Source: Amphiscolops sp. MND2022
Taxonomy: Eukaryota
Direction: 5' to 3'
DNA length: 64,000 nucleotides
Assembly (NCBI GenBank): GCA_964187785.1
Contig: OZ076411.1
Location: 4,898,001-4,962,000 of the forward strand
The notes beneath the pieces were generated by a model, which was not told the origin of the DNA, made no database searches, and saw only the letters and a program-made list of their open reading frames with translations. Below, piece by piece: positions 4,612-50,869 of this stretch (position 1 is the first letter of the stretch; every line of letters starts with the position of its first letter). Both the position numbers and the translations under genes were made by a program.

Positions 4612-6487
4612 TGTCGCGACCCCAGAGGTGCCACGGAAATCATATGACAAGAGGAACGCCTGAAGAAGGAAGTGAGGAAACTGACCAGGTCAAGTCAGAA
4701 TCGCCATGAACAAATCTAAAATAGAAGACCAATAAACAACCTGATACTATTTAAATAACACGCAAAAGTACATTTCCTTCTTCTGTGCCGTACCTAAAAT
4801 AATAGATATGTAAATAATTATATATATTAATAGTGAACGCAGTGTTTGTTTAGCCAACGCGCTGACTGAAATCAATTCGATCGACGCGTCGACTGGGGAC
4901 TCGCCTCAGTGGCAGCAGTAAATTTCAATAAATCAACCTGTATTAGCCAATCAGATTTGAGCGCAGTTAATACAAATTGAAGAACTGAGGCAACGTCCCA
5001 GGCAGCTTACCAGTCCGCTGAAGCTGGGACGCTTGCTCAGTCAATCTACCTAATCAATCAATCATTAATAATCGATGCTAATTTTTGGATGAACTTTCCG
5101 CAGCTTAAAAGAAGCTATATACCAAAAGAACATCCAATGAATAATAATCGACGAAGCTTGAAGTATCTTTAACGTGCTCAATCCACCTTGTATTTGAGTC
5201 AACTTCCCAGGCAAAGCGCTAACTTTCTCTAATAAGACAATAGCCTGGACAGATGACCGAACGTATTTAATTGATACATGTCTTATAGTTAACCGAATAA
5301 CAACGTTGCCCCTGATAAACGTGATATTTGATAATAATATAGTAAAACAACCCCCAGTGCTACTTTTTCAGTCCCCACATGCAGTGTTTTGTTAATATAT
5401 AGTTGAGTCAATCGCCCGGTCAACCGGCCAGGCTACTCTAAATGAAACTCGTTACCTGGAGTTCGCCCAGGATTTTGTTGTTAGCTTCAATTACAGCGCC
5501 AATTAACGGCCATAATCATCTGATCTAGAAGAAATCAGTGCTGTTAATTTATTTATTTGATGTTCCTCTTAATTAACTAGCAGTAAAATTTGGGATTATT
5601 CGATGATAATTTCACTTTCCTTTCCCGCTTCAGTAGCTAGGTTCATGAATTTTCAGTGCCAACTTCGGTTCGGCGTCCTGAATTGGCGGGGAATGAAGAA
5701 GAAGTAACGCGGAATTGGGACTCGGCAGGAAGTGTATCCCACTTTTCCTTTGAAGTGAGAGCCCATTCCCGAGGAAGCGGACCTAATTTGGACTTCCTTG
5801 CCTCGGATGGATGCCGAGCTGAACAAGGTGTGAATTCACGCGCGGGATTTATCCCGCGTGTCTAGCGAAAAGTATTTATACCTGAAGCGGGTTAAGGGAA
5901 GGACCAGAATATTTTATGATTTTTGCAGATCGTTCACTTTCACGGTTGAATATTTTCGTAATTTTCGCTTACTTTGATAATTGTTGCCTTTAAAATTTGT
6001 TTGTTATTCTCCTTCCCAGTTTCATAGTGAAGACTTGGATATTAATCATTTGACTAATGGTATCGTTTGGGAATAGTTTAAGGCCTACAATCGCCAATAA
6101 TATTTAATTCAGCTGTTTCCTAACTCTAAAATTTTCCCTGAAAAATGCCCGAAAAAACCCAGAAAAGAAAGCTACGGAGTGACCAGAGTACTAGTCAAAT
6201 GGATGTAGAAATAGCTAGTTCGACTAACGACGAAAATGTCTTGCTATCAGATAGAGATTTTGAAGATATCTCTAGTAAAGTCGAAAATAGATTCTCCAAG
6301 CGTCTTAGGGACACTGAAATAAACCAACGTGAAATTCTAAAGCTAATCGAAAATTTGTCATCCAAAGTCGACAACTTAGCTAACGTAAATCCTGGACAGA
6401 ATTCCTTGACATTCGAAACTGGAATCAGTGAAATCCCTAATGACGAATTAGAAGAAGTAGAACCCGCAAGGAGTGTTAACTCCAACA
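4612..6487 (+). repeat. 5' LTR of element 1 (1876 bp)
   Basis: Matches 18033-19914 with about 12 substitutions and 3 small indels counted by eye. Confidence 0.97.
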
Positions 6488-7558
6488 TGGTGACAGGAGT
6501 CCTTAACGAACCAACGACCAGCAATAACACCCATGCCCGATCTTCAAGCCTGCCACCCCCAAACCAGAGGCACTCAGACGAAATTATAGACAAACTACTA
6601 GAATCACTATACGCAACACACAAACAAGCTCCAAATCTCCCTCGCTTACCGAAGGCCCTAGCAACAACGATGCCAACATTCGACGGTAAGACAGAAAAAT
6701 TTGAACTCTTCGAGGACCTGTTTCAAACTAGCCTGAAGGTCCACCCACAAATAACGGAACAAAAGAAAATACATTATTTTCACTCGCTCCTGCGAGGAGA
6801 CGCCTTGCAAACGTTTCGCAATATGACTGAAACAACCAAAACCAACCTAAGCGACATTATAGCTGCATTCAGAAGAAGATATGTCAAAACACAATCGGTG
6901 GCCACCGCCAGATGTAAGTGGGAAAACCTTACATTTGACCCCGCCAACCAAACTTTCCAAGACTTCTTGGAGAACTACCAAAAGCTAGCCCAGGAGGCAT
7001 ACGCGGAAGATGCACCCAGATTCATTGAGACCTCCTTTTACGCGAAAATGCCCACTCACCTTAAAAGAGTACTAAATCAAGCTCGCCTCGAAACGGCATC
7101 CTATGAAACAATGGTACAACACTTAGAGAGGGAAATGGAGCTTAACGGATTAGCGAACCCAGATTCTACGACACTTACGGGCATACATAACGTAGAACCC
7201 ACCAACAACCACAACCAGAAACGACCCCCAAAAACCGCAAGCACATGTTTTGGTTGTGGACATCAAGGCCATCTCCTCCGCAACTGTAGGAAAACAAATA
7301 GAGATAAGCGAAACCAAAAGACCACCAACACAACTGTCACCAATCCATGCGAAACATGTGGCAAACTAAGCCACGAAACAAAGGACTGCTATTCAGGAGC
7401 GAACTGGGCAAACCGCCCCACATGGTGGAAGACACCTAAACCAACAGGCTCCAACAGCATCCCCCTACCGCAACAAACAACAAGTTCTACAACAACCTCA
7501 AACAAACCAGCAACCACAAACCGTGGTACAACAATCCAACCAGCCAAAAAACTATTAA
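6145..7558 (+). CDS. gag: Gag of element 1 (two zinc knuckles); ATG lies inside the 5' LTR
   Basis: PTFDGKTEKFELFEDLF capsid-like block; knuckles CFGCGHQGHLLRNC and CETCGKLSHETKDC; inferred native end QPKNY* at 7541-7558, bypassed in this copy by an extra A at ~7475-7477. Confidence 0.85.
6488..6500 (+). promoter_or_regulatory. Primer-binding site TGGTGACAGGAGT (probably tRNA-Leu)
   Basis: Directly after the LTR end; identical in element 2; one mismatch from the tRNA-Leu-type PBS TGGTGTCAGGAGT. Confidence 0.8.
7546..7552 (+). promoter_or_regulatory. -1 ribosomal frameshift slippery heptamer A AAA AAC
   Basis: Just before the native gag stop; pol is in the -1 frame; same heptamer in elements 2 and 3. 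Confidence 0.75.
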
Positions 7559-10500
7559 AGCCACGTCTTCGCTTCGGGGACTACACCGATTTCAGATACT
7601 ACACCATATCTGAACCCCCGAAGGACTTCGACAAAGAATTGTTTATGGAATGCTCTGGAGAACCATCAGTCGACTGGCAGCGACGATGGCTCATCCGACG
7701 TCTCATTAAACTCAATAAAAACACCCTCGACAAACTCCCCTACCCTGACCGGTACACCCAAAACCCTACCCACTACAACTCCACCCGAAGACCACTACTT
7801 CCCAGCTCCACACCCGAAACTTACATTTATGACCCCGACTTTCAATGTGACCCGTACTACAACGAAACTCTCTACGACACAGAAAACCTTGTCTTCAGAC
7901 AATCTATCAATGTACCGTTTCACGAATTCATAGCCAGAACCAACATGGACATCTCAACAGCTCCAAAAAAGAAAGACGACACAAATCATACTCCCGAACC
8001 ACAGGCTGAAGAAGAGCACGACAAGGAAATCACAGTGATTGTGTCACCATCGACAACACCCCTCAAGTCGATACTCAGACACAACAACGCATCGCCACTG
8101 ACTGTACAACAGTCACCCAAGAAACTCCCAGCCACCTCCAACAAAATCCGGGCAGCTATGACATCGTCTCCCTCTAGCCCAGAGAGCCCCGAACACCGAT
8201 ATTCCACCCATGAATCCCTGGGAAACAACAAAGAAGCCGGGGACCTCATACAGGCAAATCAACCTGCAACAAATCCCCGGACCCGCCGCGTTAAACGAAG
8301 ACTAACCAGTGAGTTCAATCTAACAGAGAAACCCAATCCTACAACACATAACTTTCCCAGTGAAACCCAAACCCCCACCAACGAGACACACAAACCAGAA
8401 CAAGATGAGGATTGGATACACACTAACAAACAACTTAACGAAATCGCAATCACAGATCCAGAAACGAGTGAAAAGGGCATACCAATATTCTCTGCCATCC
8501 ACCTAAAAAAGAAGCGAAAGATGCTTTTCGCCCCAATGGACTTCAACAATTTATCCGTAGACGCACTCGTTGACTCGGGAGCACTCGTCAACTGCCTACC
8601 GGAAAGCGAACTCCAGAAGATTAAATCAGTCAGCCCAGACAACATACTCAAAGAAATGGACCCACCTGACCTTCAAACTACAAGTCGCAAACGGCGACAT
8701 AGAAACACCGACGAAAACCGTCCAACTCCAATTTGAACTAGGAGATTGGACGTTCAAAGAGACGTTCATTGTAGCTACAAAAATGACAGGTCCTATCCTT
8801 GGGCTAACTTTCCTCAAAAACAACAGCGCCATCTTAGACGTAAGCCAGGCCCTGCTACATTTCCCACACCTGACCTACGCAATCGCTGCCGATGACAATG
8901 AGACAGTCTCACGTCACCATAAAGTGACCATCAAAAACCAACTCACTATCATGCCCGACCAGTGCATGACAATCGAAGCTGGCATTAACCTCCGCACTAT
9001 AACTAACACTACAGGAATCATCCACCCAACCGAGCAGTACCCTGGAGAACACCAACTAGTAGTGGCCAGCTCCCTATCTACGGTCTCAAACTCGAAAATC
9101 GAAATACGAGTCACCAATACATCACCGAATCCTTTCACCCTCAAAAAGAATGCCAACGTCGCGGAATTCACCATACTGTCACCCCAAGAAGCCAAACAAC
9201 TCCACCCTCTCAACTCTGCAGCTCTCAAGGTACTAGCGGAAGACAACACAGAACAGGCTCTCGAGTATGTCAACGAACTCTTGAAATCATCCGAAAAACC
9301 CCAGACAAATCAAAACTTCTGGTTCCCCACACCAGACAACCCGGGAGACTCATCGACACACACTCCCATCAAGAGCCGAATCCTCAGAGAAATAGAAGAA
9401 CTGGAAAGCATCCAGAAACTAAACCCACACAACAGTCCCGAAGATAGAGCAGCCTTCTTAGCCAACTTCAAATGGACCGACTCACAACTTAGCGACGAAG
9501 ACAAAAAGGACATCGAAGAAATCCTTGTCGAATACAACGACATCTTTGCAAGGCACCGCCTTGACATTGGAATCAACAATGAATTCAAAATAAAACTCAC
9601 CCCCAAATCAGAACAACCTGCGTACACCCAAAGCTTACCCTGCCCAGTCAATCTGAAGGAGGATCTGACAGTTGAGCTAGCACTGATGCACTACTACGGC
9701 ATCATCACAACTCTTCCCTTCAGCAAGTACGCAAGCCCAATCTTCGCGCAAAGAAAACCCAACGGACGTCTTCGCCTCCTCGTTGACCTAAGAAAGATCA
9801 AAACCTTATATCTGACGATTATATAAACAACAACCACCCAGTGAGCACCCTCTCGGACGCTGCGCAGCACCTAGCCGGAAAGAAACTGTTCTGCAAGCTT
9901 GACTGCTCGCAAGCCTACCATGTCCTGCAAATGGCGGACCAGAAATCAGTGGAACTCCTGGCGTTCAACTTTGCCAGTCGGACATTCGCCTACCTGCGAC
10001 TCGCACAAGGGCTCAGCAGATCCCTCTCTTCCTTCTCGAGCTTTATGCGGGAGTACCTCGATCGAGTCATAAAAGCTGACAAGTGTGCCCAATACGTTGA
10101 CGACATCGGGATAGCAACCCATACTGCCGAGGAGCTGAAGAACAACCTGCGTGAGGTCTTCCAGTGCATTAGGGAAGCAGGTCTGCGTCTGACAATGGCC
10201 AAATGCCAGTTCGGTGCCAAGGAAGTTGAATTCCTTGGACGAACAGTATCACCCGAAGGCATCGCCCCACAGTCCCACAAGATCAAAAATTACCTCCAAA
10301 AACTGTCGTTCCCAAAGACCAAAAAGGGCCTACAAAGGTACATCGGTTTCGTTAACTATTATCGGAACTACATACCTCGCCTCTCCGAAAAAATAGCACC
10401 CTTTCACGAATTGGTCAAAGCGGACAAGCCGATCAAAATAACACACGAAATCATCGCGACATTTGAACACATTAACAAGGCACTCGACAATGCTTGTGGA

Positions 10501-12921
10501 CTATGGCTGAAACAGCCCCTACCAAACAAGCAATACGTCCTCATGACAGACGCGAACTTCAAGAATGCCGGCTATGCCTTAATGATCGAAGAAAACGCTG
10601 ATGAAAAACTGACTTCAGTCAAAAAGTCATATGCCCCAGTCGCGTTCGGATCTAAAACATTCTCTCCGTCGCAAATCAAAATGTCGATATATGCCAAAGA
10701 ATTCCTGGCTATATATTTTGCCTTCATGGAATACAGCCACATTTTGTGGGGATCGACCAAACCAGTCATCGTCCTAACAGACAACAAATCTGTTACACGA
10801 TTTTTCCAGACCAAAATAATACCGCCAGCTTTGTGGAACGCCTGCGATTTTGTCCTACAGTTTAATTTTACAATCGCCCACGTCCCAGGAAGGATGAACA
10901 CTGCCGCCGATTTCCTCTCACGACTTGACCTGGACCCAAAAGAGAAAGTCCAACTCTTAATAAGAGACGACATTCAAACCGCACCAATAGAAGTGCACAT
11001 TCAATCTTCCAACGTAGCCGAAGAAGAGCAATTCTACTTCCTACCCGATGACAACATCGAAACGGAAGAGCAGATTTGGGAGAGGAAACAAAGAGCCCGT
11101 AAAAAGATCTTAAAGAACGACACCCCACAAACGCCAGAAGAAGAAACAAACGACGCCACGACCCAATCAGAAGAAACCACCATCGTATTTCAAACGGAAA
11201 TATCAAGACGTACTGAAAATCCAGAAGAGAAGGAAAGAACCTTCCCTCGCGATATGCGACACCAGCAGGACCAAGACAAGGTCCTCCGAAATTATAAACT
11301 ACGTCTCCTCAAAGAACCATACGACGAACACCTAATGGCCACAGACCACAGGGCAATCCACTACACCGCGCAAGAATCCCGAATCATACTCAAGGACGGA
11401 CTGCTATACCGGCAGTACTTCGGAGAGACCGGCGCAGTCAAATACCTACAGGTCTTACTCCCAGAACAACTCGTTGACTCGTTCATCGAAGCCCACCATG
11501 GAATGCACGACAGACATCCCGGAATAACTAAAGCAATACAACAGTGCAGAGAAAAATACTACTACCCAAATCTTGCGGCCAAAATAGCCAAACACATCAA
11601 CCAATGCATGAAATGCATGCAAACAAAACGAACAGACAATCGCCTCCTCACACCGCCAATGATTAATACATCAAAACTGGCAATGGGACCAGAAGATGCC
11701 TTACAAATGGATATCGTCCCATTCGATGAACCATCCAACGGATTTACAGCAATAGTCACCGCAAAGGACATATTTTCACGCTACCTATTCACATACTGCG
11801 TTACCAGAATAGATGCAAAGACAGTTGCAAGAATACTAGTGGATATCATGACCAGACACGCCTACCTCCCTACCACAATCATAACCGACAAAGGAACCCA
11901 ATTCATGTCAGAAGTAGTGGCCGACACCACACGAGTGCTGGGCATCCAACTACGACACGCCACAACAAAGCATGCCCAAACAATAGGCATCCTGGAACGT
12001 TGCCACGCATCCCTGAAGGAAGCCCTGAAAATCTCAACAGGAGAAAGGAGAACAATGTGGCACCAATTCGTACCTGCAGCCACCCTCAATTATAACACAA
12101 CCTACCATTCAGCGATAGGGTGTGAACCCAGTCGAGTGTTCCATGGTAGAGTTCCATACAATATTCTGGACCTCAAATTCGGTCTCAAACCAAACCAAAA
12201 CAGGAACCCGACAACGGACGTAGGCGAAGAAGTCGTCCAGAAAACCCGGATGATACACGAATCAGTGAGTAAACACCTTCTCCACTCCTACATAAAGTAC
12301 AAACAGTACTACGATAAAAAAGCTTCTGCCCACCCCTTAACAACGAATGATTACTGTTATGCCCTACACCCTCAGGCAAACACACAGGGATCAAAACTAC
12401 CCTTCCGAGAATACTTATGGACAGGGCCATTTGTAGTAGTCAAAACCCTTCCTAACAACAACTACCTGATCCGCAAGTTGCAAACCAACAAAACACAAAT
12501 CCTACACCGGATACGCCTGAAACCGTGCCCTACTAAAGAACGCCTACCAGACATTCAAGTCCAATCTAAAGACTTCCAACCAGACAATGAAGTCGAGATT
12601 TTACATGACGACTTATACGCCCTGGCATGGCAGTCTGGGTTTGAACACTTCGTGATGTCACCCGAACACAAAGCGAGTAACGAACCGGAGATTACACCAG
12701 CTGACAGGGAAGACAACCCGGAAACTGCCGCCCAGGACGTTGACCCAGACCCCCCTCTAGAAAGCCAGCCAGACCAACCGGAAATCGCACCCGAAACCGA
12801 CCCTAACCCAGAACCCAGTTCTCCCCGGAAAGGAAAATACAACCTACGCAGTAACCCCCCTTCAAATTGGAAAAGAGATTATGCTTATTACGACTCCGTG
12901 GTCGTTGACACAAACGAATAG
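7546..12921 (+). pseudogene. pol: Pol of element 1 (spacer, PR, RT, RNase H, IN) with frameshifts at ~8666-8671 and ~9802
   Basis: DSGA protease, YVDD RT, TDAN RNase H, HHCC zinc finger, integrase core and WTGPF (GPY/F) motif, spread over ORFs 6145-8736, 8570-9826 and 9841-12921. Confidence 0.93.
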
Positions 12922-13212
12922 ACTCCTAACATGAATTTGCGAAATGGTACACTTACTAACTACTTGACGGACAAACTAAAACTAACTCAACTCATCTACG
13001 AACTCAAGAGAAAACGCAAACATGGGGCCAAGAATGTATTGTAATAATACCCCATCATTGGACTAACTACGACTGAGGTTTTTTCCTCTTTTTCTTTTTC
13101 CATCGTACACTCTTCTATCACAAGAACACTATAAAGAAATTGAATAATACAGGAAAACAACAAAGTTACAGTCAATTATGAAGTCTAACTCCAATGGTCC
13201 CAACCAACGGAC

Positions 13213-16200
13213 CTAGCATTTCTTTACAGGAGTCGAATCTTTCCCTCCAGAACCTGACTCTTGCGAAGCACGTCGAGCTTCTCGTTTCTGCCTCAGCATC
13301 CGAGTAACATCACGGGAAGAAGAAGGAGAATACGACAGAGCAGCAAATAAAGGAGAAGCCTGAGGAGAAACAGCAGACTCCGTACTACTTCCTGCAACAG
13401 CAACAGCGGCAGACACACCAACTGACAATGGGGACACAGATGGATCCGCAACCACTCCAAGCTCCACCGACGTTTGAGGACTGGCACCAGCAACTGACAA
13501 TGTCGTAGAGGACGATAACCCAGTACCGGCACGACGACGCCACTCCGCAACTTGTCCTAAGTAATACTCATCAAACCGATCCCGCAAACCGCGATAAAGA
13601 TCTTGACGATTGAGTACATAAAGTGGCCGCCATGGAGCGAAACTCTCATTGTTCAAGAAATCCTTCCCCACAGGCAAATTGGCCTTTAACTCAAGCAAAC
13701 AGTCTTTCGTCAACAACTCGCCGGAATTGAACCCGGGAGCAGAAATAAACGACTGCACAGCGAAGATGGAAGACAACAAAATCTTCTTGGGGACCCGAAC
13801 ACCGCTCAAAGAGAACTCCACGTCTGGATAACGCACCTCACGAGGAATAGCAACCAAAGAAGCCAACTGAACCACATGCGATAAATTCCCGCGACAGCCA
13901 AAAGCCTCAGCCTGCTGCATGAACACGAAAGTGTCCGTGATGGTGCTCACAACACGCCGATTACGACGACGAAGATCCACCAGGAAGGACTTGAACTCAT
14001 TTCAAGCACCCTCAGCTACAACATTCGTCACTCGCCCACAATCTTGAAAGCAAGCCATCAGCCCCCGGAACAGCTCCACAGTATAATTCTCATCACCCAG
14101 AAGCAACATATCTGGCGCAAAACAACTCAGATTAGATGCCAATTGCGAGAGGACAAACGGACAACGTGCCAAAACTTTCAGAAATTCCATCAGTAGACCA
14201 TGGCAGTCTCGCAAGAAAGATCGTCGACGAGAGTCAGTAAACCCAGTCATAGCAATGCCGAAAATGCGCTCCCCACGGAAACAATCGACATAAGCCACAT
14301 TAGGCCAAGTATTCAGAGGTCGACCAATGTATTCGCTCCAAGAGTCAATGTCGGGGAGGTCAGACAGTTTCTTCACTTTGCTTAGGACACTCCAATAAAA
14401 GAAACAAAATTCGCCATAAGAGCGACAGCTGTAATCATAAATATCCTGCGCAGAAAGTTTCTGGAAATTAGCCTGGAAGCATGACACCAAAAGGTGCAGC
14501 AAGCTCAAACGGGGCAACACCTGGGCATCAGACAGGACCATTTGATTCAAATCAGCTGGCGTCCTACTGCGACTGGCAGGAACAACTGACGACTCTTTCA
14601 GAAAGGACTGGACATCACCCCAATTGCAGATCAATTCATCCAGTACTGTACACAAAGAAGCGAAGGGCACTACATTTCGCTGAACACAGCGGCGCAACTC
14701 ACACATGCCCATAAGCCAGGGCTGATGCGACGCCTTCCCCAAACGAAGAAGAAGATACTCAACGATTGAGAAAGGGTCCAGGGATCCAGAGCTCGGCCCA
14801 GAAGCCTCACGAACATGCTCTTTAAACATCTCCACAGAATATTCCATCATCAGAAGTGGCACAGGACGATTATCAGCTTTACACCAGTCAGCGAAGACAT
14901 TGAAAAGGGTTGACGAACACCCTCGCAGTGATACTGGCGTAGTCCCATCAGGAAGAACAGCTAGCAAACGGGACAAACAGGCAATCTCAGCATCACAAAT
15001 ACCAGGTCTCAGAGGCTCCCACAACACACAAACTTCATGCAAACTCCCAGCATTCCAACAGTGCACGAAGCATCGAAGCCCATCACAATCCTCACGGAAA
15101 CTGACACTAAAATGAGCGTCTTTACACCAGGATTGCACACGACGAATGATTCGGGGGTACAAAGTTTGAGTCAGGACGACAAGAGACTCTGTCTTACTCC
15201 AAGTCGAGTGAGCACAGTCGGAGTCAACCAGCATAGTGGTACGAAACTGATTCCACAACCTCCTGAGGAAACTGTGGGACCCACCGCTGCGTAGGAGCTC
15301 AAAGAGACCCCCTACAAGAGTGGAAGCTGGTATATTTGATGCCACGCCAACCAAGGCATCAACCTCATCCTTGACAAAAGGGTTCTTACAGCCGAGCACC
15401 ACAGCTGGAGTTTTCTCAATTTCGACACGCAACTCAGCCGATATAGAAGAGACTTCCACGGCATCAAAGCGTGATGTGTACACGTAATCTTCATGGTCGA
15501 GCCTGTATCGTCGGTCACGCAAGAAATGGGTCTTACTCCCGAAGTGACGCCAAATTTCCGGTTCTCCTTTGCTCAAGAACGAGATATCCTTGCGACAAAT
15601 AGCACAATTGAACCCATTCGGATTCTTATCAGATAGCTGGCTCACAAACAACCGAGGTATAGCATGCTCAGCCATCTCTTTCCGGAGTACATGACGTTCC
15701 GTTTGATGTTTCTTCTTTTTCAAGTATGAAGCATACAGCTTCCGTTTTGCATCGTCCTCAGCCCCAGCCTCAGATTGATCACGATGTAGGCGAATCCCTT
15801 TCGACTTCAGAAGACGCACCACCTCTTCAAGTTCTAAACACACAATTACACATCTATAAACGCAAAACAGAACCAATACTAACTAAAGACCAATAGAAAC
15901 AATCACACTACAAGATATAAACAAACCAGTCGGAAATACAACCAGAAACCATGGAGAATCAATCAGATGAGGAAACAACCAAACAGGCTACTTACGACGG
16001 GTCAAAGAACGATATTCCAGACGCGACTGACTCTTCTCCAAGCGAACAGGAGCTTGACCAAACGCCAACACCTGAGAGGAGGAGAGACACACAGCACCCG
16101 CCGGAACTTCAGATAAACCAGCTGGAACAGAAGCGCAAATACTGAGAGATGATTAATATTACAAACAATACAAGCCACTACCAATCAAAACCTGACAGCC

Positions 16201-17190
16201 AGAAACATATTGAGAATAGTAACCTTTCTCCCATTCATTGTGAAGAACAGAAGCCTCCAGTCCTTCTGTGGGCCGAGTATGCTGAGTACGCTCATGCACA
16301 GCTCTAGAGGAACTTGCACCAACGACGGAAGCCCCGTCATCATCCTGAGAAACACCAGGAACATCGAAGATGGCATCACTTGAAACATCGTCAGCAATTC
16401 GAACTCTACGCCCTAAAACATAACCAACAACTGAACATCAGGGAAAGAAAGGCAATAACCCAGTATCCCAATACCTCCCGACAATCAGCAAAACAAACGA
16501 ATGCCTACCTTCATGAAATACCTTCATTTACCCCAGTAGAAACATTGGATGACTCCTCATCACCAGACCCTGTGCCTCCACCAAGTGACATCTCACGAGC
16601 ACGCTTCGTCGGCTGCTCCTGCGGAACCGAGCCCAAACGCTTACTGCGCCGAAACACGGAAACAGGTGGCAGTTTGCCAGGGGAGAAATCCTCATCTTTG
16701 GAGTCATCAGAGAGACCTACAAAGAATATGAAAGTAGATGAATTGACGCGTCAGAATACTAGCTCTCATAACGTTAACTGGCCATTAACGGAATAGCTAA
16801 GGACTTACCAGGCTGGTCACGGAGGAAGTCTATATCGTGTCTGGCATCACTGCCAGCTGAATGGGTTGAACCACTCTCGCCTTCTCCGTCAGAATCCAGG
16901 GTATCATCAGAAGCGCTATCCCTCTCAGTAGCACTTTCTTCCTCTGAACCATCGTCTACCTCTCCGAATCCAGGAACACGGCGGGCACTTTGTAAGCCAG
17001 GACTGTCGCGATCTTCAGTCCCTTCAACTGTTTCCCCTTCTTTTGAACTCTCCACAATCACAAGACGCGACTCCGACTCATCGCCTTCAACTGACTCATC
17101 CCTCCTTCCCACCTCTGCTTCACTTTCGATAATGCCCACCTGGCGGGACTGCAGAAATCGAGCAGCATCCTCATCAGTAGACTCAGCCAT
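13213..17190 (-). pseudogene. Antisense spliced cargo gene of element 1 (zinc finger plus inactive hAT-transposase-like protein, ~1170 codons), with one in-frame TGA at 14002-14004
   Basis: Proposed exons 17190-16809, 16716-16522, 16412-16224, 16121-15996, 15833-13213; GT-AG introns of 92, 109, 102 and 162 bp, all phase 1; ORFs 14002-15876 and 13213-13980 are in the same frame; homologous to the element 2 gene. N-terminal exon boundaries are less certain. Confidence 0.75.
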
Positions 17191-17491: not shown

Positions 17492-18130
17492 ATGGCATCT
17501 CTTGATCTCAACTTATCAAGCGATAGTTTCATTCTGGAACGCGACCAAGCCGCTTATTTGAATAACCCTGCAGCGCAATCAACACCCAAGACCCTACATA
17601 ACCCCTATTCGGCAGAACAATCACCTATTATTCAGGATGTGTACGAAATTATAAATACAGGGAAGGAACACATCGTGCTTTACCACGAAACAGCCCCAGC
17701 CTCAATACTATCAACGGCACAAGAGGACACACTCCCGATCAGAAGATTCACCAATGTCAACCCGATTATACCAGATGACATATTTATGAGCCCACCGAGA
17801 AATTATGACAACATGAATAGCTGGCTATACAGTCCCAACGACGGGGCAATGAGCCCAATTTCTGATACCAGCTCAATTGGCTATTTCTCGGGAAGTGACT
17901 GGACAACTGACTCGTCCTGGTTCTCCTATGATTCATAAATACAATCAGTGTTCCAACAACCAATTTCGTCGCCGTTTAGACCAGTTTCCCCACTCCCTCC
18001 TATACCGGACGCCCCTCACGAAAGCCGGGGACTGTCGCGACCCCAGAGGTGCCACGGAAATTATATGACAAGAGGAACGCCTGAAGAAGGAAGTGAGGAA
18101 ACTGATCAGGTCAAGTCAGAATCGCCATGA
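17492..18130 (+). CDS. Sense ORF3 of element 1 (acidic, Ser/Pro-rich, ~212 codons, in-frame TAA at 17936-17938), running through the PPT into the 3' LTR
   Basis: ORFs 17369-17938 and 17948-18130 are in frame; first ATG 17492; ends 98 bp into the LTR; equivalent ORF in element 2. Confidence 0.6.
18020..18032 (+). promoter_or_regulatory. Polypurine tract of element 1 (GAAAGCCGGGGAC)
   Basis: Immediately 5' of the 3' LTR. Confidence 0.65.
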
Positions 18131-19914
18131 ACAAATCTAAAATAGAAGACCAATAAACAACCTGATACTATTTAAATAACACGCAAAAGTACATTTCCTT
18201 CTTCTGTGCCGTACCTAAAATAATAGATATGTAAATAATTATATATATATATTAATAGTGAACGCAGTATTTGTTTAGCCAACGCGCTGACTGAAATCAA
18301 TTCGATCAACGCGTCGACTGGGGACTCGCCTCAGTGGCAGCAGTAAATTTCAATAAATCAACCTGTATTAGCCAATCAGATTTGAGCGCAGTTAATACAA
18401 ATTGAAGAACTGAGGCAACGTCCCAGGCAGCTTACCAGTCCGCTGAAGCTGGGACGCTTGCTCAGTCAATCTACCTAATCAATCAATCATTAATAATCGA
18501 TGCTAATTTTTGGATGAACTTTCCGCAGCTTAAAAGAAGCTATATACCAAAAGAACATCCAATGAATAATAATCGACGAAGCTTGAAGTATCTTTAACGT
18601 GCTCAATCCACCTTGTATTTGAGTCAACTTCCCAGGCAAAGCGCTAACTTTCTCTAATAAGACAATAGCCTGGACAGATGACCGAACGTATTTAATTAAT
18701 ACATGTCTTATAGTTAACCGAATAACAACGTTGCCCCTGATAAGCGTGATATTTGATAATAATATAGTAAAACAACCCCCCAGTGCTACTTTTTCAGTCC
18801 CCACATGCAGTGTTTTGTTAATATATAGTTGAGTCAATCGCCCGGTCAACCGGCCAGGCTACTCTAAATGAAACTCGTTACCTGGAGTTCGCCCAGGATT
18901 TTATTGTTAGCTTCAATTACAGCGCCAATTAACGGCCATAATCATCTGATTTAGAAGAAATCAGTGCTGTTAATTTGTTTATTTGATGTTCCTCTTAATT
19001 AACTAGCAGTAAAATTTGGGATTATTCGATGATAATTTCACTTTCCTTTCCCGCTTCAGTAGCTAGGTTCATGAATTTTCAGTGCCAACTTCGGTTCGGC
19101 GTCCTGAATTGGCGGGGAATGAAGAAGAAGTAACGCGGAATTGGGACTCGGCAGGAAGTGTATCCCACTTTTCCTTTGAAGTGAGATCCCATTCCCGAGG
19201 AAGCGGACCTAATTTGGACTTCCTTGCCTCGGATGGATGCCGAGCTGAACAAGGTGTGAATTCACGCGAGGGATTTATCCCGCGTGTCTAGCGAAAAGTA
19301 TTTATACCTGAAGCGGGTTAAGGGAAGGACCAGAATATTTTATGATTTTTGCAGATCGTTCACTTTCACGGTTGAATATTTTCGTAATTTTCGCTTACTT
19401 TGATAATTGTTGCCTTTAAAATTTGTTTGTTATTCTCCTTCCCAGTTTCATAGTGAAGACTTGGATATTAATCATTTGACTAATTGGTATCGTTTGGGAA
19501 TAGTTTAAGGCCTACAATCGCCAATAATATTTAATTCAGCTGTTTCCTAACTCTAACATTTTCCCTGAAAAATGCCCGAAAAAACCCAGAAAAGAAAGCT
19601 ACGGAGTGACCAGAGTACTAGTCAAATGGATGTAGAAATAGCTAGTTCGACTAACGACGAAAATGTCTTGCTATCAGATAGAGATTTTGAAGATATCTCT
19701 AGTAAAGTCGAAAATAGATTCTCCAAGCGTCTTAGGGACACTGAAATAAACCAACGTGAAATTCTAAAGCTAATCGAAAATTTGTCATCCAAAGTCGACA
19801 ACTTAGCTAACGTAAATCCTGGACAGAATTCCTTGACATTCGAAACTGGAATCAGTGAAATCCCTAATGACGAATTAGAAGAAGTAGAACCCGCAAGGAG
19901 TGTTAACTCCAACA
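18033..19914 (+). repeat. 3' LTR of element 1 (1882 bp)
   Basis: Matches 4612-6487; followed by TSD AAGTT. Confidence 0.97.
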
Positions 19915-37231: not shown

Positions 37232-39359
37232 TGTCACGACCCGCTCCCGGTCGGGACTTCACTTGCTGTGGAGGAATACCGCAATTCACGCGAGGAAAAG
37301 GACACGGCAGAGCTACACAACATTAAGTAAACTCTATTTAATGCCTTACCTTTTATCCAAACAGCAGCACGAATTAAGTTTAACGGAAGCGCAACGTAAA
37401 TTATTCAAAAATGATTTAGACAAAAAGAAAATTTCCGGTTTAATGATTTCACATGCAATCGTTTCATCACTTCCGGTTTCGACTGATGAAAATTCCATGC
37501 CAATCTAAATATTAAAAAAGAAACATCCTTAACACTGGGATCAATTTTTCTTTTCTCCACACTAAAATGAAAACGCTAAAACAATATTTAATTCCGTGAT
37601 CCCAACGGAACGCAGACGATCTAAAATGAAAGAACATACAAAGAGAATGGTGGAATTGTTTTCCAATGATTGATCAGTTGTGAATATCCACTTAAGAATG
37701 CAGTTAAGCAACTTAAGACAAAATTTACAATGCAATGACAACGTCACTAAGCTTGATTGAAAAGTAAATGTTTCTATTTTTACGGACCAATAGCGTCGCC
37801 TTTCACCATCCCTAGTTACCATAGCAACGCCAATTGAGAGAGAGAATAAGAATGAATTTGTTAACGCTGTCCGCTCCGTCTCCGCAAGCAAGCACTGCTC
37901 AACTATACCTAATCTTAATACGTACGGAGCGATTACGGAGCAAATTGTAATGCGAAGAAGCTATACCCAATCTTAATACGTAGGGAGCATTTACGGAGCG
38001 TTTACGGAGTGAATTGTAATAGGTGAAGTTATACCTAATGTTAATACATGTAAGACAAGCGTGGAAAATTCTAAAACACAGAAGCTATCCTAATACATTA
38101 GGATGTTCCTGAGGTTATGTAGAATTATTCCGAGATATTTAAATTATCATAAGGTTTTACTTTTTCCACCCGGATTTTCTCCGTTTTAGTGATCGATTAA
38201 AAGGTTCGTGTTGTTAATTAGGATAAAAGCGAATCCTTACAAAAGGGTGCTTCTTCCTATTCTGTAGAAGAATATTTTGTGTATTAATCACGTTGTAGAA
38301 ACGTTGCTTTCGTGCATATGCTATTTAATTGTTGCATTTGTCAGTGTTAACTAACTCAATTCATGTAAAGTTAGATAGATTATTGTTGGTTGTTTTCTGA
38401 TTTACAATAATCAGGTTTTTTAGTTCGTATTCATCACCTTTCCAGCATCATTTGTTCCTTCTCAAATATCTCAGTTTATCAATCCAAAATTCTCCCGAGA
38501 TATCTCTGTAACAAATTTTGCTTGTCATTTCTTTTATCGCAAGCTGAAAGTTTACCGCTCGTAAAGTGAATCATCGTTCATGCCCGCGTGCTTTCCGCGA
38601 TAAAGTTTCAACTAGACATTTGTTTTGCCGCCTTTTTCCGCAATCAAACCGGAAATGATGTTAATGAACAAAAATGATTTCAACAAGTACTCCGTAAGGG
38701 ATCCGTGACTAGGAATTTTAAATCATGAACAATTAATAAAAGGGTTGAAATAATAAGGATGATTAAGCATTTTTGTTGAACAAAACCGATTTTAAGGATT
38801 CCTAGGAATTTTTAGGTGAGGAACAAATGATGCTGTGAAAGTATATATACCTAAGGATTTGTAAATCTGTTTAATCTGTTTCCTAATCTACTCCGTTAAT
38901 ACTTCGTTTTGAAAACCATATTTCTTTGAAGAATTCAAATTTTCCAAAGAACAATCACTCTCTCGCTCTGTCTAAAAATGACTACTAGAAGCCAGAAGAG
39001 AAAAGCTATTGAAGAACTAGTTTCTACTGAAATGGAGACCCCAATACCTGAGACTAACCAAAACTTAAAGCCCGTAGTGGGGACGAGTAAATCTCCTAGA
39101 GTAATCACTGAAAATCTAGAGGAAATCAAGTCTTCACTGAGAAAAGAGATCATGTCTGATCTTACCAAAATCTTAGCTGAAAATCAAAAGGAGATGCTAA
39201 AACTAATAGCTGCTCCTGTTAAAAAACAGACCGTCGTAGCAACTACTGAAGAAACAGATTCTGAATCCGAAAATATCCCGGAAAATGCAACTTCGACACC
39301 AATCAAAAATAAAACCGCTGCGACTAATCGAAAAATCACCCCGATAAATAGTCGTAACA
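37232..39359 (+). repeat. 5' LTR of element 2 (2128 bp)
   Basis: Matches 50775-52902 with about 17 substitutions counted by eye. Confidence 0.97.
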
Positions 39360-40390
39360 TGGTGACAGGAGTCCTCAATGACTCAACGAACCTCGGAAAG
39401 AAGAAAACACGACCGCACCGCCCACAAAGTTTGCCACCCAACGAACGGCCTTCGACATCACGACTACTCTTCGCTCCCCAACCGGAAATACACCAGCCGC
39501 CCCACCTACCCTCAATGCCCAAAGCACTCACTGCATCATTGCCTGTATTCGATGGTAAGTCAGAAAAATTCGAACTTTTCGAGGACTTATTCCGGAACAA
39601 CATAAAAATGTACCCACATCTAACAGAAATCCAAAAAATCAACTACTTCCACTCGCTACTACGAGGCAATGCACTACAAGCATATTGCAACTTAGACGAT
39701 GCCAAAAAAGATAACTTAGAGGAGGTAATTACGGCGTTTAAACGGCGCTTCGGAGATTTTCAATCTTCTGCCAAAGCGAGATGCGAATGGGACTCGCTAC
39801 ATTTTGACCCAACCAAACAAAAACTACATGAATTTTTGGATACACTGCAAAAAACGGCTAAAGAAGCGTTCGGCTCTGAAGCACAAAAATTTATAGACAA
39901 GGCCATATACGCCAAATTGCCGGACCATGTCAAAAAGATTCTCAACCGTGCCTACCTCGAAGACAAGCCGTACAACGACATTGTCCTCCATCTCGAAAGA
40001 GAGATGCGCCTCAATGGCCTGGGCGCCCCAGACGAAACAATACTAGTTCCACTAAATACGGTCGACGTTGCTCCCCCGGAACCGAAAAAAGAGCCCACCC
40101 AACGAGGAAACTGCTTCCACTGTGGCAAATACGGCCACTACAAAGCCCAATGTAGAAAACTCCGCAAAGAACGCTACTACGAAACTAAAGCGCAAAACGG
40201 TGCTACCAATACAAATGACCCGCCCAAACCTAAATGTGACACATGTGGAAAACTTCACAAAACTGAAAACTGTTGGTACGGAGCTAATGCGGCAAATGAC
40301 CCCAGAAAGAAACGCCATGAATTTGCCATACCTACCAGCCAAATCAGTGAACAACCGATCCCCACTGTCGAAATTCAGCCAAAAAACTAA
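38978..40390 (+). CDS. gag: Gag of element 2 (470 aa); ATG lies inside the LTR
   Basis: Intact ORF; PVFDGKSEKFELFEDLF; knuckles CFHCGKYGHYKAQC and CDTCGKLHKTENC. Confidence 0.93.
   Translation: MTTRSQKRKAIEELVSTEMETPIPETNQNLKPVVGTSKSPRVITENLEEIKSSLRKEIMSDLTKILAENQKEMLKLIAAPVKKQTVVATTEETDSESENIPENATSTPIKNKTAATNRKITPINSRNMVTGVLNDSTNLGKKKTRPHRPQSLPPNERPSTSRLLFAPQPEIHQPPHLPSMPKALTASLPVFDGKSEKFELFEDLFRNNIKMYPHLTEIQKINYFHSLLRGNALQAYCNLDDAKKDNLEEVITAFKRRFGDFQSSAKARCEWDSLHFDPTKQKLHEFLDTLQKTAKEAFGSEAQKFIDKAIYAKLPDHVKKILNRAYLEDKPYNDIVLHLEREMRLNGLGAPDETILVPLNTVDVAPPEPKKEPTQRGNCFHCGKYGHYKAQCRKLRKERYYETKAQNGATNTNDPPKPKCDTCGKLHKTENCWYGANAANDPRKKRHEFAIPTSQISEQPIPTVEIQPKN
39360..39372 (+). promoter_or_regulatory. 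Primer-binding site TGGTGACAGGAGT
   Basis: Directly after the LTR; identical to element 1. Confidence 0.8.
40381..40387 (+). promoter_or_regulatory. -1 frameshift slippery heptamer A AAA AAC
   Basis: Directly before the gag TAA; the -1 frame is open into the pol ORF. Confidence 0.8.
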
Positions 40391-43300
40391 AAACGCCGCG
40401 CCTCCGCTTCGGGGAAACGGTAGACGCAAGGGCGTACACAATAGAAGACCCCCCAAATCGCTACGAAGAAGACTTCATGACCGAATGCAACGAAGAACCG
40501 ATACAGGATTGGCAACGTCGTTGGAACGTAGGCATGATACTTAGACACAATGCACGACACCCAGAAGACCCAACACCACTACCCCAATGGATAACAGAAT
40601 CACCCGATAACTACGCGACACTAAAAAGACCCTTACCAGAATCAAAGACCGAACGCATTTACATATATGATAGAGACTATAGATGTGATCCCTGGGATGA
40701 ACCAACCATCTATGACACAAACAAGCTCTCTTTTAAGATCCAAGTTTCAAATCCTCAAGCTCAAGTCACCGAGAGTACAACCCTACCAACACCTTTGTCA
40801 CCAATCCTAAAAAAGACAACACAGTCCTCGCCAACACCCGTCACCACCACGTCCACACCAATAGATGCAGAGAATATTATCTGCATTGAGGATAAAACAA
40901 TATGGTCACAACAAGCAAAAGAACAACGCGGAGTAGCCGATCAAACAGTACCACCCCCCACAACAGCATCCGAATTGCCAAATCAGAACAACAATCATGA
41001 AGACGACGAAGTAACGGAATGCCCACAACAACTGCCATACGATCTCAACATCATAAAAGAATTCATACAACATGATAAAGATGACGACTACATTCCGTTA
41101 ATGTCGGCAATTACCCTCAAAAAGAAGAAAAGAATGCTCTTTATTCCTCTCGACTTTGAAAACACTAGAATTGATGCATTAGTCGACTCGGGAGCCTACA
41201 TCAACGTCATCAGTGAAAGAGACGCATACAAGATACAAACTGATGCCAACGCAACCATAATCGCGAAGGCACCTCCACCCCCTTTCAAGATACAATATGC
41301 CAACACAGAACTCGAAAAAGCCCGTACAACATACACAATGCAGTTCAAAATCGGGGACTACGCGTTCGAAGAAACTTTCATCATCATGACCAAAACATCT
41401 TACACAATCATTGGCCTGGCATTCCTCCGGAAGCATTCCGCAATCCTAGACACTGCACAAGGAACAATAGACTTTCCTAAAATACAAATCACTCTAGCCC
41501 TAAAAGATGAAAGACAAAAGTGCAACCCCAAACCCATCACTATCAAGACGGAAGAAAAACACACCATACCAGCCCAAGCCACGCGGATCATCCACGCTTC
41601 CATCACCACAAACAATGACCACGCAATAACTGGGACAGTCCAACCTTTACCACAATTCGACGAAAATGCAAAACTCATAGTAGCCCCAGCAATAACAACA
41701 GCCCGAGACAAACGAGTTGCGATAAAAATAGCGAACACCACAGACTTCCCCTATACAGTAACGCCACATACGAAACTAGCAGAATTACAAATACTGAAAC
41801 CTGAAGAAACGAAATTGATACGAGCAGTAGATATAGCAGCCCTCAATCTACTCACCGAACACGACGATGTTGTTGCGTACGTTAACGCACTGATGCAAGT
41901 TGATTCGTCAGAACAAACAGAAGAGAAATTCTGGTTCCCAACTCCCGAAAATCCCGGAGATGAATCGGAACACACACCCATCCAACAACGCATTCTACGA
42001 GAACTACGCGAACTACAAAAATTAGAAGAACTGGACCCCAAACAAGACGAAAAATCCAGAACACAATTCCTCTCGCTATTCAAATGGAATGATTCACTAA
42101 CAACGGGAGAAGATCGTGAAAACCTAGAGTCCACCCTACTCGAATTCAATGACATTTTTGCACGTCACCGACTGGACATCGGAATGAACAACCAGTTCAA
42201 GGTATGCCTAACTCCCAAAAACGACAAACCGGTATATACACAGAGTCTCCCTGTACCCATCAACCTCAAGGACGACCTCACAGTAGAATTGGCACTGATG
42301 CACAAATACGGGATCATCACAACCCTCCCATTCTCGAAATATGCCAGCCCCATCTTCGCGCAACGCAAACCCAACGGCAAACTACGGCTCCTAGTAGACT
42401 TACGGAAGATCAACGCCCTCATCTCAGATGACTACATAAACAACAACCACCCCATCAGCACCCTCTCAGATGCCGCACAACACCTAGCGGGGAAGCAGCT
42501 GTTCTGCAAACTAGATTGCTCACAAGCCTATCACTGCCTCCAAATGGCAGATCAAAGGTCAGTAGAACTCCTTGCATTTAATTTTGCCAGTAGAACGTTT
42601 GCCTATCGTAGGCTAGCCCAAGGCCTTAGTAGAGCCTTGTCAGCCTTTTCGAGCTTCATGCGGGAATACCTCGACACCGTCATCAAAGCAGACCAGTGTG
42701 CCCAATATGTAGACGACATTGGAATCGCTGCCAACACAACGGAACAACTCATTAAGAACATCAGAGCAGTCTTCAAATGCATCCGCAAGGCAGGACTAAA
42801 ACTCACAATTGAAAAATGCCACTTTGGTGTCACCCAAATCGAATTCCTGGGAAGAACCATCACACCCCACGGAGTAGCACCGCAAGACCACAAAATCACC
42901 AGTTTCTTGTCAAAAATCAGATTTCCCCGGTCAAAGAAACAAGTCCAGAAATACATTGGATTCATCAACTACTACAGAAACTACATACCAAGATTGTCCG
43001 AAAAAATGATTGGAATGTACGAACTCCTAAAAGCAGATGCCAAAATCACCATATCTGAAGAACTAGTCGACAACTTCAAAGCGATTAACGCGAGCCTAGC
43101 GGAGGCCTGTGGACTTGCACTCAGACAGCCAATTGCAGGAAAACAATATGTACTGATGACGGATGCTAGCTTCCGAGCATCCGGATATGCGCTCATGATC
43201 GAAGAAAACGACGACAAAAAACTACTCTCCAAAAGAAAAACCTTCGCCCCTGTAGCTTTCGGATCACGCGTGTTCTCGCCGTCACAACTGAAGATGTCGA

Positions 43301-45596
43301 TATACTGTAAAGAATTCCTCGCAATATATCATGCATTCCTTGAATATAATCACATTCTCTGGGAAACAACACGACCTACACTAGTACTGACAGACAACAG
43401 ATCAGTAACGAGATTTTTCCAGACGAAAACAACGCCACCCGCTCTCTGGAATGCCTGCGACTACGTACTCCAGTTCAAATTCCGCATCATGCACGTAGCT
43501 GGCGCGCAAAATACAGCAGCCGACTTCCTGTCTCGCCTCGAATTAACTCCAAAAGAGAGAATCCAACTCAAATTGCGAGACGACATCATAACTGCACCTA
43601 TCGAGGTTAACCTACAGTCTACAGATGTTGCGGACGAAGAACAACTCTTTTTCCTGCCAGACGAAGAAGAGGAATCAGAACAAGAAATTTTCGCCAGGAA
43701 AGCCCTTAGCAAACAACGAGCAATAGACGAAAAGGAACAACAAAACTTGACAACCGAAGTCACAGAAACAGTGCACATACCTCTCAACTCAGCAGTATAC
43801 GCCTTTGGAGCCATCAAGGAAAACGCCCGCATCCGCAACGAACAGGACGCGGACCCGATATTGAAAGCATTGAAACTACGGCTGCTTCACGAAGAATACG
43901 ACAAACACCTTCTCAAGACCGAACCCAGAGGACGAAACCTACTACGTCACGAAGAAAGAATAATAGTCAAAGACGGAGTACTCATGCGTAAATACTACGG
44001 AGAAGATGGCACAGTAACACATCACCAAATCCTCATACCGAAACATATAGTACCAGAACTCCTATCGACGCTACATGGAAAAATGAACAAACACCAAGGA
44101 ATAACCAAAATGATTCAGGAAAGCCGAGCAAAGTACTACTATCCGGGACTAGCGCGGAAAATTAGAGCCTGGGTATTCAACTGTCCAGATTGCATAGCCA
44201 ACAAACGAATCGACACGCGCCAAATACGTCCTAAAATGCTGAGTAATACAGAATTCACATTCGGACCAGAAGATTGTCTAGAAGTCGATATTCTACCCAA
44301 TCTACCCTCATCAAACGGCTACAAACACATCATAACCATGATGGACGTTTTCTCCCGTTATTTGTTCGCATACCCCACTCAAGACATGACTGCCAGAACA
44401 GTCGGACGATGCATAATTGACGTTATGACACGTCACTGTTATCTGCCTACAGTGATTCTGACTGATAAAGGATCACAATTCCGATCAGATGTCGTGAACC
44501 AAATAGCACAAACACTGGACATACGGATTAGCCACGCATCGACGAAACATGCACAAACGATTGGAATACTAGAGAGAACGCACGCATCTCTAAAGACGTC
44601 CCTTAAAATATCAACGGGAGAACGCCGTTCGATGTGGCACAAATACGTACAAATTGCAGTAATGAACTACAACACTAGTTACCACGAAAGCCTAGGGTGC
44701 GAACCAACAACCGTATTTCACGGACGCATTCCGTACAACATTCTGGATATCAACCTGGGACTCAAACCAGAATGGAAAAAGACGCTAACGAAGACCTTGC
44801 GGACGAATTACAAAAGCAAATCGCTGAAATCCACCAGTCAGCCAAGGACAACCTCATGCAATCATATTTGAAGTATAAGCGATATTATGATAAGAAAGCG
44901 ACAGCAACGCCATTGAAAATCAATGACTATTGCTACGTCCTGAACCCGAAGGCTGATAACCAGTTAATGAAATTCGCTTTCAAAGATTGCATTTGGACAG
45001 GACCATATATAGTGATCAAAGTCCTTTCCAATAACAATTACGTCGTAAGACGGACAGGAACAAGATATACGCAAACCCTCCATAGAATTCGCCTAAGGCT
45101 ATATGCGCCCAATCAGAGAGTACCTGACGTAACAGTCAAAGTGGAAGATCAGCTTCCAGATCCCGAGGTTAAAACAACCCATGATGATTGGTACGCGCAA
45201 GCTTGGGAAACCGAATTCGGAGAAGTTCTGTTCGGCAACTCATCGGAAAGAGAAAATGAAGAAGCTAACATCACAGAGCTGCCAGCGGAAGACGCAAATA
45301 CAACGGAGCAAGAAACAGCTATAACAACTGCAGACGAAACTTCAACAGCAGAACAAATTCCCTCCGGAAATGAAACGTCGCCCAACCTAGATGTCAGCGA
45401 TAACCCTTTCATAATGACCCCACCGCCTATGGAAAGCCCTCCCATACCGCCTACACTTCCGCCTATAGTTGTCGGATACAACCCGAGGAAAGCAGGAAGA
45501 TATAACTTACGTCCTAATCCTAAACCTAATGCGCACCCCGACTTTAGGATGCTGGACGCAATCACTGCGGAAGAGAATTCTCAACCTCAAAACTGA
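40381..45596 (+). CDS. pol: Pol of element 2 (PR-RT-RH-IN), with one frameshift in an A5 run at 44776-44780
   Basis: DSGA, YVDD, TDAS, HHCC, integrase core and WTGPY; ORFs 40477-44871 and 44697-45596 join if one A is added. Confidence 0.93.
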
Positions 45597-50134: not shown

Positions 50135-50869
50135 ATGAATAACTACGACTTAGTTATCGATATCTCCTCCGACGAAGAAGAACGGGGTAGCAACGTAAGA
50201 CAGAGCACCCCAATCAAAATACTCCCGCTTAATGTGATAACAACACTGGATCTTTCTGAAGCCTCCTTAGAAGCTACAAAAGGCAGCGCAGAAGAGATGA
50301 TGGACTCTATCAATAGTCTAAATTTATCCGGCATCTCAGCGTCTACATTTGAGACTATCGGTTCACCGAGAAAAATAAACTTCGGCACTACAAGCCCTGG
50401 CGAAGCTTTCATAGTGGAAGGGCATAGTACTGAAACGCCTGAAGAAAGCTACTTTGAAGAGCCGGATACTCCCCGTCAACTACCGCCGCTGCAGCCCGCC
50501 CCAGTATTACGAGACGTGTCTAACAAAGAGCTTCAGTACAATGGACCGCCTGCAAAAGCCGACAAACTCGACGACTTGATGGAGCCAGCAGTAGAAGAAA
50601 TCGAAAACGCCTATGGCATAGATCTACAAAGCAGCCGAGAGAACAGCCCGTTGTGCGGACGGGGAACGCGCTATACTTCTACAAAACTGGCAAGAGCACG
50701 AAAACAACCAGTACTGATCACCAGAGAGATTCCCCACTGCCCCAGACCGTGGTCAACAGGCTATAGAGGCGCCCTGTCACGACCCGCTCCCGGTCGGGAC
50801 TTCACTTGCTGTGGAGGAATACCGCAATTCACGCGAGGAAAAGGACACGGCAGAGCTACACAACATTAA
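50135..50869 (+). CDS. Sense ORF3 of element 2 (244 aa, acidic and disordered), reading through the PPT 95 bp into the 3' LTR
   Basis: Open frame 50033-50869; N-terminal LVIDISSDEEE and QSTP motifs resemble element 1 ORF3. Confidence 0.7.
   Translation: MNNYDLVIDISSDEEERGSNVRQSTPIKILPLNVITTLDLSEASLEATKGSAEEMMDSINSLNLSGISASTFETIGSPRKINFGTTSPGEAFIVEGHSTETPEESYFEEPDTPRQLPPLQPAPVLRDVSNKELQYNGPPAKADKLDDLMEPAVEEIENAYGIDLQSSRENSPLCGRGTRYTSTKLARARKQPVLITREIPHCPRPWSTGYRGALSRPAPGRDFTCCGGIPQFTRGKGHGRATQH

Follow-up and report, generated by a model that had tools for sequence, protein, structure and literature searches.

A hAT-type transposase, very probably catalytically dead, carried as an antisense accessory gene by Ty3/gypsy retrotransposons of Amphiscolops

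Why should an LTR retrotransposon carry a gene that resembles the transposase of a DNA transposon? The question was raised by a 64,000-nucleotide stretch of a eukaryotic genome (Amphiscolops sp. MND2022; assembly of 1.07 Gb), hereafter the window, in which a sequence-only reading had proposed that the region 13900–15650 encodes the cargo of a class I element: a hAT transposase that is catalytically dead and bears a BED-like zinc finger. Two Ty3/gypsy elements, both complete and both on the plus strand, lie in the window: element 1 (4612–19914) and element 2 (37232–52902). Both match the Ty3/gypsy definition: their LTRs have TG..CA ends, their target site duplications (TSDs) of 5 bp fall within the 4–6 bp range, and their Pfam domains follow the order gag-PR-RT-RH-IN (Table 1). 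In both elements, the sequence directly after the 5' LTR opens with TGGTGACAGGAG, and the gag open reading frame (ORF) starts inside the LTR (6142–6487 and 38930–39359), so that each LTR closes with more than 100 gag codons. The pol region is split by frameshifts in both (8561–9826 and 9787–12921 in element 1; 44679–45596 in element 2), which suggests that both copies are probably inactive, although their LTRs are 99% identical.

Other repeats lie elsewhere in the window. A 432-codon ORF with a DUF1759 gag-like domain (20947–22245, minus strand) is probably a relic of another LTR element. Two 1.3-kb direct repeats (24261–25577 and 28572–29888), 96.8% identical and separated by 4.3 kb that contain no long ORF, possibly represent a non-autonomous LTR element. 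There are also a minisatellite with an 11-bp unit (1957–2128) and MITE-like repeats dispersed in both orientations (228–431, 2495–2747, 20284–20503, 23360–23471, and 59788–60040).

In both elements, the cargo is an antisense gene located between pol and the 3' LTR and is predicted to be spliced. In element 1, a minus-strand ORF of 626 codons (14002–15882) continues in frame for 262 codons (13213–14001) past one stop, and a homologue of this ORF, broken into pieces, resides in element 2; both had been read from the sequence, and both were found inside LTR elements. The extent proposed for the gene was too small: our element 1 model consists of five predicted exons from an ATG at 17190 down to 13213 (1171 codons), with one in-frame stop at 14002–14004. 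All four predicted introns of this model are GT..AG, and the reading frame of the 5' exons is open; exons 1–4 encode a predicted 298-residue N-terminus that is disordered and contains 21% D+E and 15% Ser. The four-exon core of element 2 (827 codons, no stop, one exon of 82 nt) is colinear with the intronless last exon of element 1, and further upstream cargo exons probably lie at about 48700–49700. The minus-strand splice signals imply an antisense mRNA distinct from the genomic RNA; judging from these sites, the cargo is probably read from its own spliced antisense mRNA and not within Gag-Pol.

Table 1. Features of the two carrier elements, their cargo genes and the second accessory ORFs (positions in the window unless a locus is named).
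Feature	Position	Strand	Remarks
Element 1 5' LTR	4612..6487	+	TG..CA; TSD AAGTT; overlaps gag start; 99.0% identity to 3' LTR
Element 1 gag and pol (protease, RT, RNase H, integrase)	6142..12921	+	Ty3/gypsy order; three frames
Element 1 cargo last exon	13213..15833	-	Finger, hAT DNA-binding region, RNase H-like core with helical insertion, basic low-complexity tail
Third catalytic residue (E676)	13816..13818	-	Glu kept in element 1
Second catalytic Asp (Arg307, or Gly308 in adjacent register)	14920..14925	-	D 0/43 at 307, 3/43 at 308
First catalytic Asp (position 250)	15094..15096	-	Arg in element 1; D 0/39 rows, E 5
BED-like finger C-x2-C-x16-H-x5-H (P0001 residues 80-106)	15526..15606	-	
Element 1 cargo exons 1-4 (predicted)	16809-17190, 16522-16716, 16224-16412, 15996-16121 (span 15996..17190)	-	
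Element 1 second accessory ORF (148 aa)	17492..17938	+	Head-to-head with cargo; dN/dS 0.05-0.09 where not saturated
Element 1 3' LTR	18033..19914	+	LTR pair 99.0% identical
Element 2 5' LTR	37232..39359	+	TSD GGGGC
Element 2 gag and pol	38930..45596	+	
Element 2 cargo core, four exons	48020-48603, 47266-47886, 47077-47158, 45756-46951 (span 45756..48603)	-	GT..AG
Element 2 second accessory ORF (244 aa)	50135..50869	+	N-terminal hydrophobic-then-acidic motif
Element 2 3' LTR	50775..52902	+	99.2% identity to 5' LTR
Third-clade second ORF	L305:2503-3468	-	

Three genome searches, with 10,431, 6,857, and 11,744 first-look candidates, returned at least 76, at least 104, and at least 106 cargo matches, respectively (at least 286 scored together). 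Open copies of about 880 codons were common, and the protein collection held 58 relatives at 45–98% identity. Since many full-length copies are open, including at the position of the element 1 stop, this stop is best read as damage to one copy and not as a family trait. In all 40 close loci (the window's two included) and in 19 of 20 diverse loci, every one of them found through the cargo itself, the cargo ran antisense to integrase, with the two genes tail-to-tail. In the single exception, the cargo was truncated and interrupted by another gypsy element, which bears a third, deeply diverged antisense cargo; 20 copies of the latter at 100% identity, among the matches listed, suggest a very recent burst of this third clade. 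One third-clade copy lies about 7 kb before the window (contig positions 4889813–4891033). We then considered selection, using Nei-Gojobori estimates. The dN/dS of the element 1 core against a sister family was 0.043 (609 codons, dS 1.19), like that of pol, and the element 2 cargo gave 0.14 (pol, 0.03–0.17). The 5' exons of element 1 gave 0.16–0.32 in six of six comparisons, and thus the N-terminal acidic arm is also under purifying selection. Very close cargo copies gave 0.33–0.44 from few changes, and distant pairs were saturated. Collectively, these data make it highly likely that the cargo is an accessory gene maintained by the element.

Sequence searches alone gave little indication of what the cargo encodes. 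A Pfam scan of the cargo found no family and no zf-BED match, a search of the PDB by cargo sequence returned a chance match only, and searches of the genome with PF14291 and PF18658 found no match, nor did their controls. Matching of ESM Atlas features, which we treat as a lead only, pointed to hAT-type clusters at 0.88–0.93. Cargo relatives in the protein searches were exclusively unnamed ENA or Logan entries among the matches listed (the best 150 of 807 and the best 120 of 132), and named distant relatives may be present among the remainder; a scan of JGI metagenomes found no cargo relative. The best identity of one relative, P0200, was 39% among the scored matches in the Amphiscolops genome, a hint, not proof, that the cargo family is present in other organisms.

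Structure was more informative. An AlphaFold2 model of the open copy P0001, built from an alignment of 94 rows (pLDDT 85, pTM 0.70), consists of a finger, a helical region, an RNase H-like core (three strands, helix, strand), a long helical insertion, and a disordered tail. Foldseek with this model retrieved 12 chains at E ≤ 0.001, and all ten listed were Hermes (best match E 5.8e-6, TM 0.33/0.49). Among 48,161 chains compared by VIA-align, Hermes ranked at the top (Z 12.6, rmsd 5.4, 401 residues; model 204–707 onto Hermes 133–609) and was the sole chain with Z ≥ 8; ISCth4, Tn5, and RAG1 followed at Z 5.5–6.3, mixed with unrelated helical matches. As in Hermes, the RNase H-like core of the model is split by an all-helical insertion. 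The hAT fold proposed from the letters is therefore borne out by a significant structural match, and the motif blocks quoted for it are all there, in hAT order. The finger is also C2H2 and BED-like, as had been described, but its spacing is x16 and not x14. Its ligands are kept in the 34 non-redundant rows (C80 33/34, C83 32/34, H100 31/34, and H106 34/34), and the spacing is that of the intact hAT group described below, whose own zf-BED score was only E 0.062. Basic residues are kept in the N-terminal half as well (K85, R99, R114, R185, K217, and R231; position 217 is K or R in 29/29).

To place the cargo among hAT transposases, we compared profiles. Neither Ac-type hATs (6 sequences, E 0.31) nor Tip100-type (THAP12/ZMYM1-like) hATs (49 sequences, E 0.085) aligned significantly, and the link to hATs was therefore made through structure and through a third group of these transposases, here called the donor group. 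This group was reached via a motif, first found in the Amphiscolops genome and then at 80 metagenome loci, 39 of which yielded ORFs of at least 330 aa carrying one of the group motifs. The cargo profile aligned to this group over 640 columns with a probability of 97.7% and an E value of 1.7e-12, whereas one reversed and seven block-shuffled controls scored 0.1–9.8. The subgroup given in the sequence-only reading (ZNF862-type) calls for revision: among the Ac-type, Tip100-type, and donor groups, the best match was the donor group with its 6-bp TSDs, not Tip100. The donor group consists of genuine hATs: the model built for it matches the Hermes fold (E 1e-8), alignment to Tip100 gave a probability of 97.8, and the group motifs correspond, though weakly overall (probability 28), to those of an Ac-type protein that itself aligns to Hermes by sequence. 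Perfect 12-bp terminal inverted repeats (TIRs) and 6-bp TSDs were found at 2 of the 80 loci (L159 and L206), and the group appears hAT6-like by these TSDs, as the available text of PMC12730594 defines hAT6 by a 6-bp TSD. The hATx-6 elements are described, in the available text of PMC8721813, with 8-bp TSDs and a Pfam dimerisation domain, unlike the donor group. Donor-group proteins (L150–L229 and L124) are about 850 aa long with a long C-terminal coiled coil in the model, and their TIRs begin with CAGGGT; the group is widespread in metagenomes, and none of five proteins tested gave a Pfam match above cut-off. Relatives also occur in the Amphiscolops genome, where the copies seen are mostly partial. 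The cargo is only 13–14% identical to intact donor-group transposases.

The next question is whether the cargo could still act as a transposase. Catalytic residues were mapped by profile alignment at 14% identity, not by superposed coordinates, and cargo residues were tallied over rows that are <80% identical locally. The donor group retains a complete site (D1 29/31, D2 38/38, C 37/37, H 38/38, R 35/36, W 34/36, and E 24/24), although these tallies are partly circular since donor ORFs were chosen by such motifs. In the cargo, both catalytic aspartates are replaced (Table 1), with Glu at position 250 in element 2 and the third clade. Position 676 is Asn in element 2 and Ser in the third clade, and among 60 non-redundant rows it is D in 31 and E in 15 (acidic in 46/60). 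No column in 333–347 is mainly C or H (37 rows), as a CxxH motif would demand. In neither of the two possible registers do elements 1 and 2 have the RW arginine, and the tryptophan corresponds either to Phe394 (Phe in 33/39) or, in the hhalign register, to an invariant W376 (39/39). The claimed substitution of D1, D2, and CxxH thus holds in both elements, whereas the third catalytic Glu, also said to be lost, is still present in element 1. Alignment of the DDE, CxxH, and RW residues revealed no intact DDE triad in the cargo, which also departs from hAT enzymes in its CxxH and RW motifs. DDE chemistry depends on two-metal catalysis, which the loss of both aspartates renders very unlikely, and the cargo is very probably catalytically dead. 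Taken together, the fold, the profile alignment, and the residue tallies against an intact donor group support the view that a dead hAT transposase with a BED-like finger is the cargo of a class I element.

We next reconstructed how this arrangement may have arisen. The comparisons above indicate that a large Ty3/gypsy family took in a hAT enzyme long ago and that the enzyme lost its cutting site and kept its DNA-binding parts. A tree of 24 rows with long branches, in which eight donor-group proteins served as the root, placed the cargos in a single clade (UFBoot 100), and the third clade was basal within it (96). Deep cargo clades correspond to deep pol clades, in a comparison whose cargo tree left out L095 and L101 for low coverage; the three share 18–30% identity in the cargo and about 60–65% in pol. 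An intron near position 222 is common to element 2 and the third clade, in the same phase, and, from reading the printed sequence, so are the 82-nt exon and both its flanking introns. These shared introns imply that the element 1 clade precisely lost three neighbouring ancestral introns, and it retains its 5' introns. We infer recombination with cDNA of the spliced antisense mRNA, from which such a pattern would be expected. At shallow depth, cargo alleles have been swapped between near-identical backbones: L109 and L110 are 98% identical in pol and 65% in the cargo, and the L094/L235 element resembles element 2 at 98% in pol and 93.6% on the LTR side (over 49872–52902) but at only 55% in the cargo.

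A short second ORF lies head-to-head with the cargo in all three clades and is under purifying selection where tested; it follows the LTR side, not the cargo. The ORF begins with a hydrophobic-then-acidic motif, which we take to resemble a SUMO-interaction motif, in element 2 and the third clade as well as in 6 of 8 related loci; the element 1 ORF gave no pattern match. Between the accessory ORFs of element 2, at about 49860–49920, there are two TGACGTCA palindromes, presumably CRE-like, and TGACGTCA was likewise one of the top motifs of L234, L236, and L238. This region is a candidate bidirectional promoter.

What, then, might a dead transposase do for its carrier? We propose, with a probability of about one half, that the cargo is a nuclear DNA- or chromatin-binding accessory factor that promotes expression of the element or counters its silencing. 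The protein would enter the nucleus, where the finger and hAT scaffold would bind element DNA or chromatin, and the acidic arm could recruit host factors so that the element stays transcribed or host silencing is undone, an action we liken to that of a retroviral antisense accessory factor or of VANC. Such a regulator would fit the architecture (acidic arm, finger, dead scaffold, and basic tail) as well as the separate transcript and the diversity of alleles, and a conflict with the host would be expected to yield alleles that differ far more than their backbones. Counter-arguments are the lack of target-motif arrays, a cargo that does not track its LTR, and the frequent acid at position 676; moreover, a fold does not by itself reveal a function. 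In k-mer and tandem-repeat scans for VANC-like arrays, element 1 had no over-represented 6- or 8-mer, and element 2 had only the TGACGTCA palindrome. The cargo of the L094/L235 element also argues against strict one-cargo-one-LTR recognition, and the earlier suggestion that the protein binds a family-specific LTR is weakened, as the cargo differs on a near-identical LTR side. In a more elaborate and tentative version, which we would not yet favour, the two accessory genes form a counter-silencing cassette: the dead hAT with its acidic arm would be the DNA-binding half and the second ORF a SUMO-interaction-like partner, with alleles exchanged in a silencing arms race and the antisense mRNA sometimes reverse-transcribed back into the element, which would explain the precise loss of three introns.

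The main rival, which we consider rather unlikely, is an integration cofactor, that is, a dead transposase that binds integrase or the cDNA ends and aids nuclear import, end protection, or the choice of target chromatin. Transposases of the hAT type bind both DNA ends and target DNA, the cargo always adjoins the integrase end, and it co-diverges with pol at depth. However, very different cargos sit on near-identical integrases, a separate antisense mRNA offers no built-in route into the particle, and no common junction sequence emerged when 35 upstream flanks taken from 60 loci (element 1 type, 18; element 2 type, 17) were compared, a comparison that is blind to targeting by chromatin type. 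The same flanks weaken the earlier idea of tethering to a fixed target sequence. Less likely still is a competition or copy-number factor, whereby the cargo would repress or block rival gypsy or hAT elements, for example as a dominant-negative subunit, or limit the spread of its own element. Many divergent alleles, purifying selection, swapping between backbones, and donor-group relatives in the same genome are consistent with this, but the low identity to intact donor transposases makes mixed dimers unlikely, and the donor copies in the genome are mostly partial. Residual nuclease activity via a rearranged site is very improbable: the frequent acid at position 676, the Glu at position 250 in element 2 and the third clade, and W376 as a possible RW tryptophan could contribute to such a site, but D1, D2, CxxH, and the RW arginine are gone, strands 1 and 4 of the core carry no conserved acid, and the Glu-bearing helix of the donor model (about 647–650) has no counterpart in the cargo model. 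Finally, although nested insertions are common (e.g., L101) and the element 1 copy has its in-frame stop, a passive nested hAT insertion carried by the retrotransposon is effectively refuted, as no TIR and TSD pair of at least 2 kb surrounds the cargo in the 3' region of either window element, dN/dS between families is 0.04–0.14, splice sites are conserved, three deep clades agree in cargo position and orientation, and full-length open copies are numerous.

Several known systems resemble the accessory factor that we favour. ZBED1/DREF, ZBED6, DAYSLEEPER, and FAM200/GTF2IRD2 are host-domesticated hAT proteins in which the hAT scaffold and finger likewise serve a factor that acts on DNA or chromatin and no longer transposes. 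The cargo differs in that it was domesticated by a mobile element, is multicopy and diversifying, and is swapped among backbones. With hAT transposases (Hermes, and hAT6 in the available text of PMC12730594), it shares the finger, the DNA-binding region, the core with its insertion, and the C-terminal region over about 640 columns, but it is without D1, D2, CxxH, the RW arginine, TIRs, and a TSD, has an additional acidic N-terminal arm, and moves inside a retrotransposon. Antisense ORFs of plant Ty3/gypsy elements (Grande gene23, RIRE2, and Retand TRP28) also lie between pol and the 3' LTR in most copies and are thought to be nuclear and DNA-binding; in the parts of PMC7264820 and PMC11963269 available, their origin and function are given as unknown, with no clear similarity to other transposable elements, and the TRP28 domain is a short one merely named 'transposase 28'. 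By contrast, the origin of the cargo can be traced: it has a full-length DDE transposase fold, is encoded by several exons, and lies head-to-head with a second ORF. The VANC anti-silencing proteins of VANDAL (MuDR) elements, covered together with captured host domains in the accessible text of PMC12859917 and PMC13547354, are likewise element-encoded accessory proteins diversified by family, and the cargo may share their action against silencing, but they are MAIN-like, belong to a DNA transposon, and co-evolve with target DNA. Scans of the window elements found no such target arrays. Extra ORFs of animal LTR elements, such as the bdelloid ORF3 exonucleases and esterases and those of planarian Burro, are also captured accessory genes of gypsy-like elements; those named in the accessible text of PMC5408684 and PMC6431247 (env, GDSL, DEDDy, dUTPase, apoptosis, and ubiquitin) include no DNA transposase.

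A literature search, whose coverage excluded Repbase Reports, supplements, and most subscription journals, found no case of a hAT-derived accessory gene in an LTR element. Antisense accessory genes of LTR elements have long been known, and a class II donor is without precedent in the literature searched. The finding means that a mobile element can domesticate the enzyme of another. The cargo can be traced to the other class of transposons, is modelled with confidence, has at least 286 matches in one genome, and occurs as naturally swapped alleles on near-identical backbones; it makes the role of antisense accessory ORFs testable.
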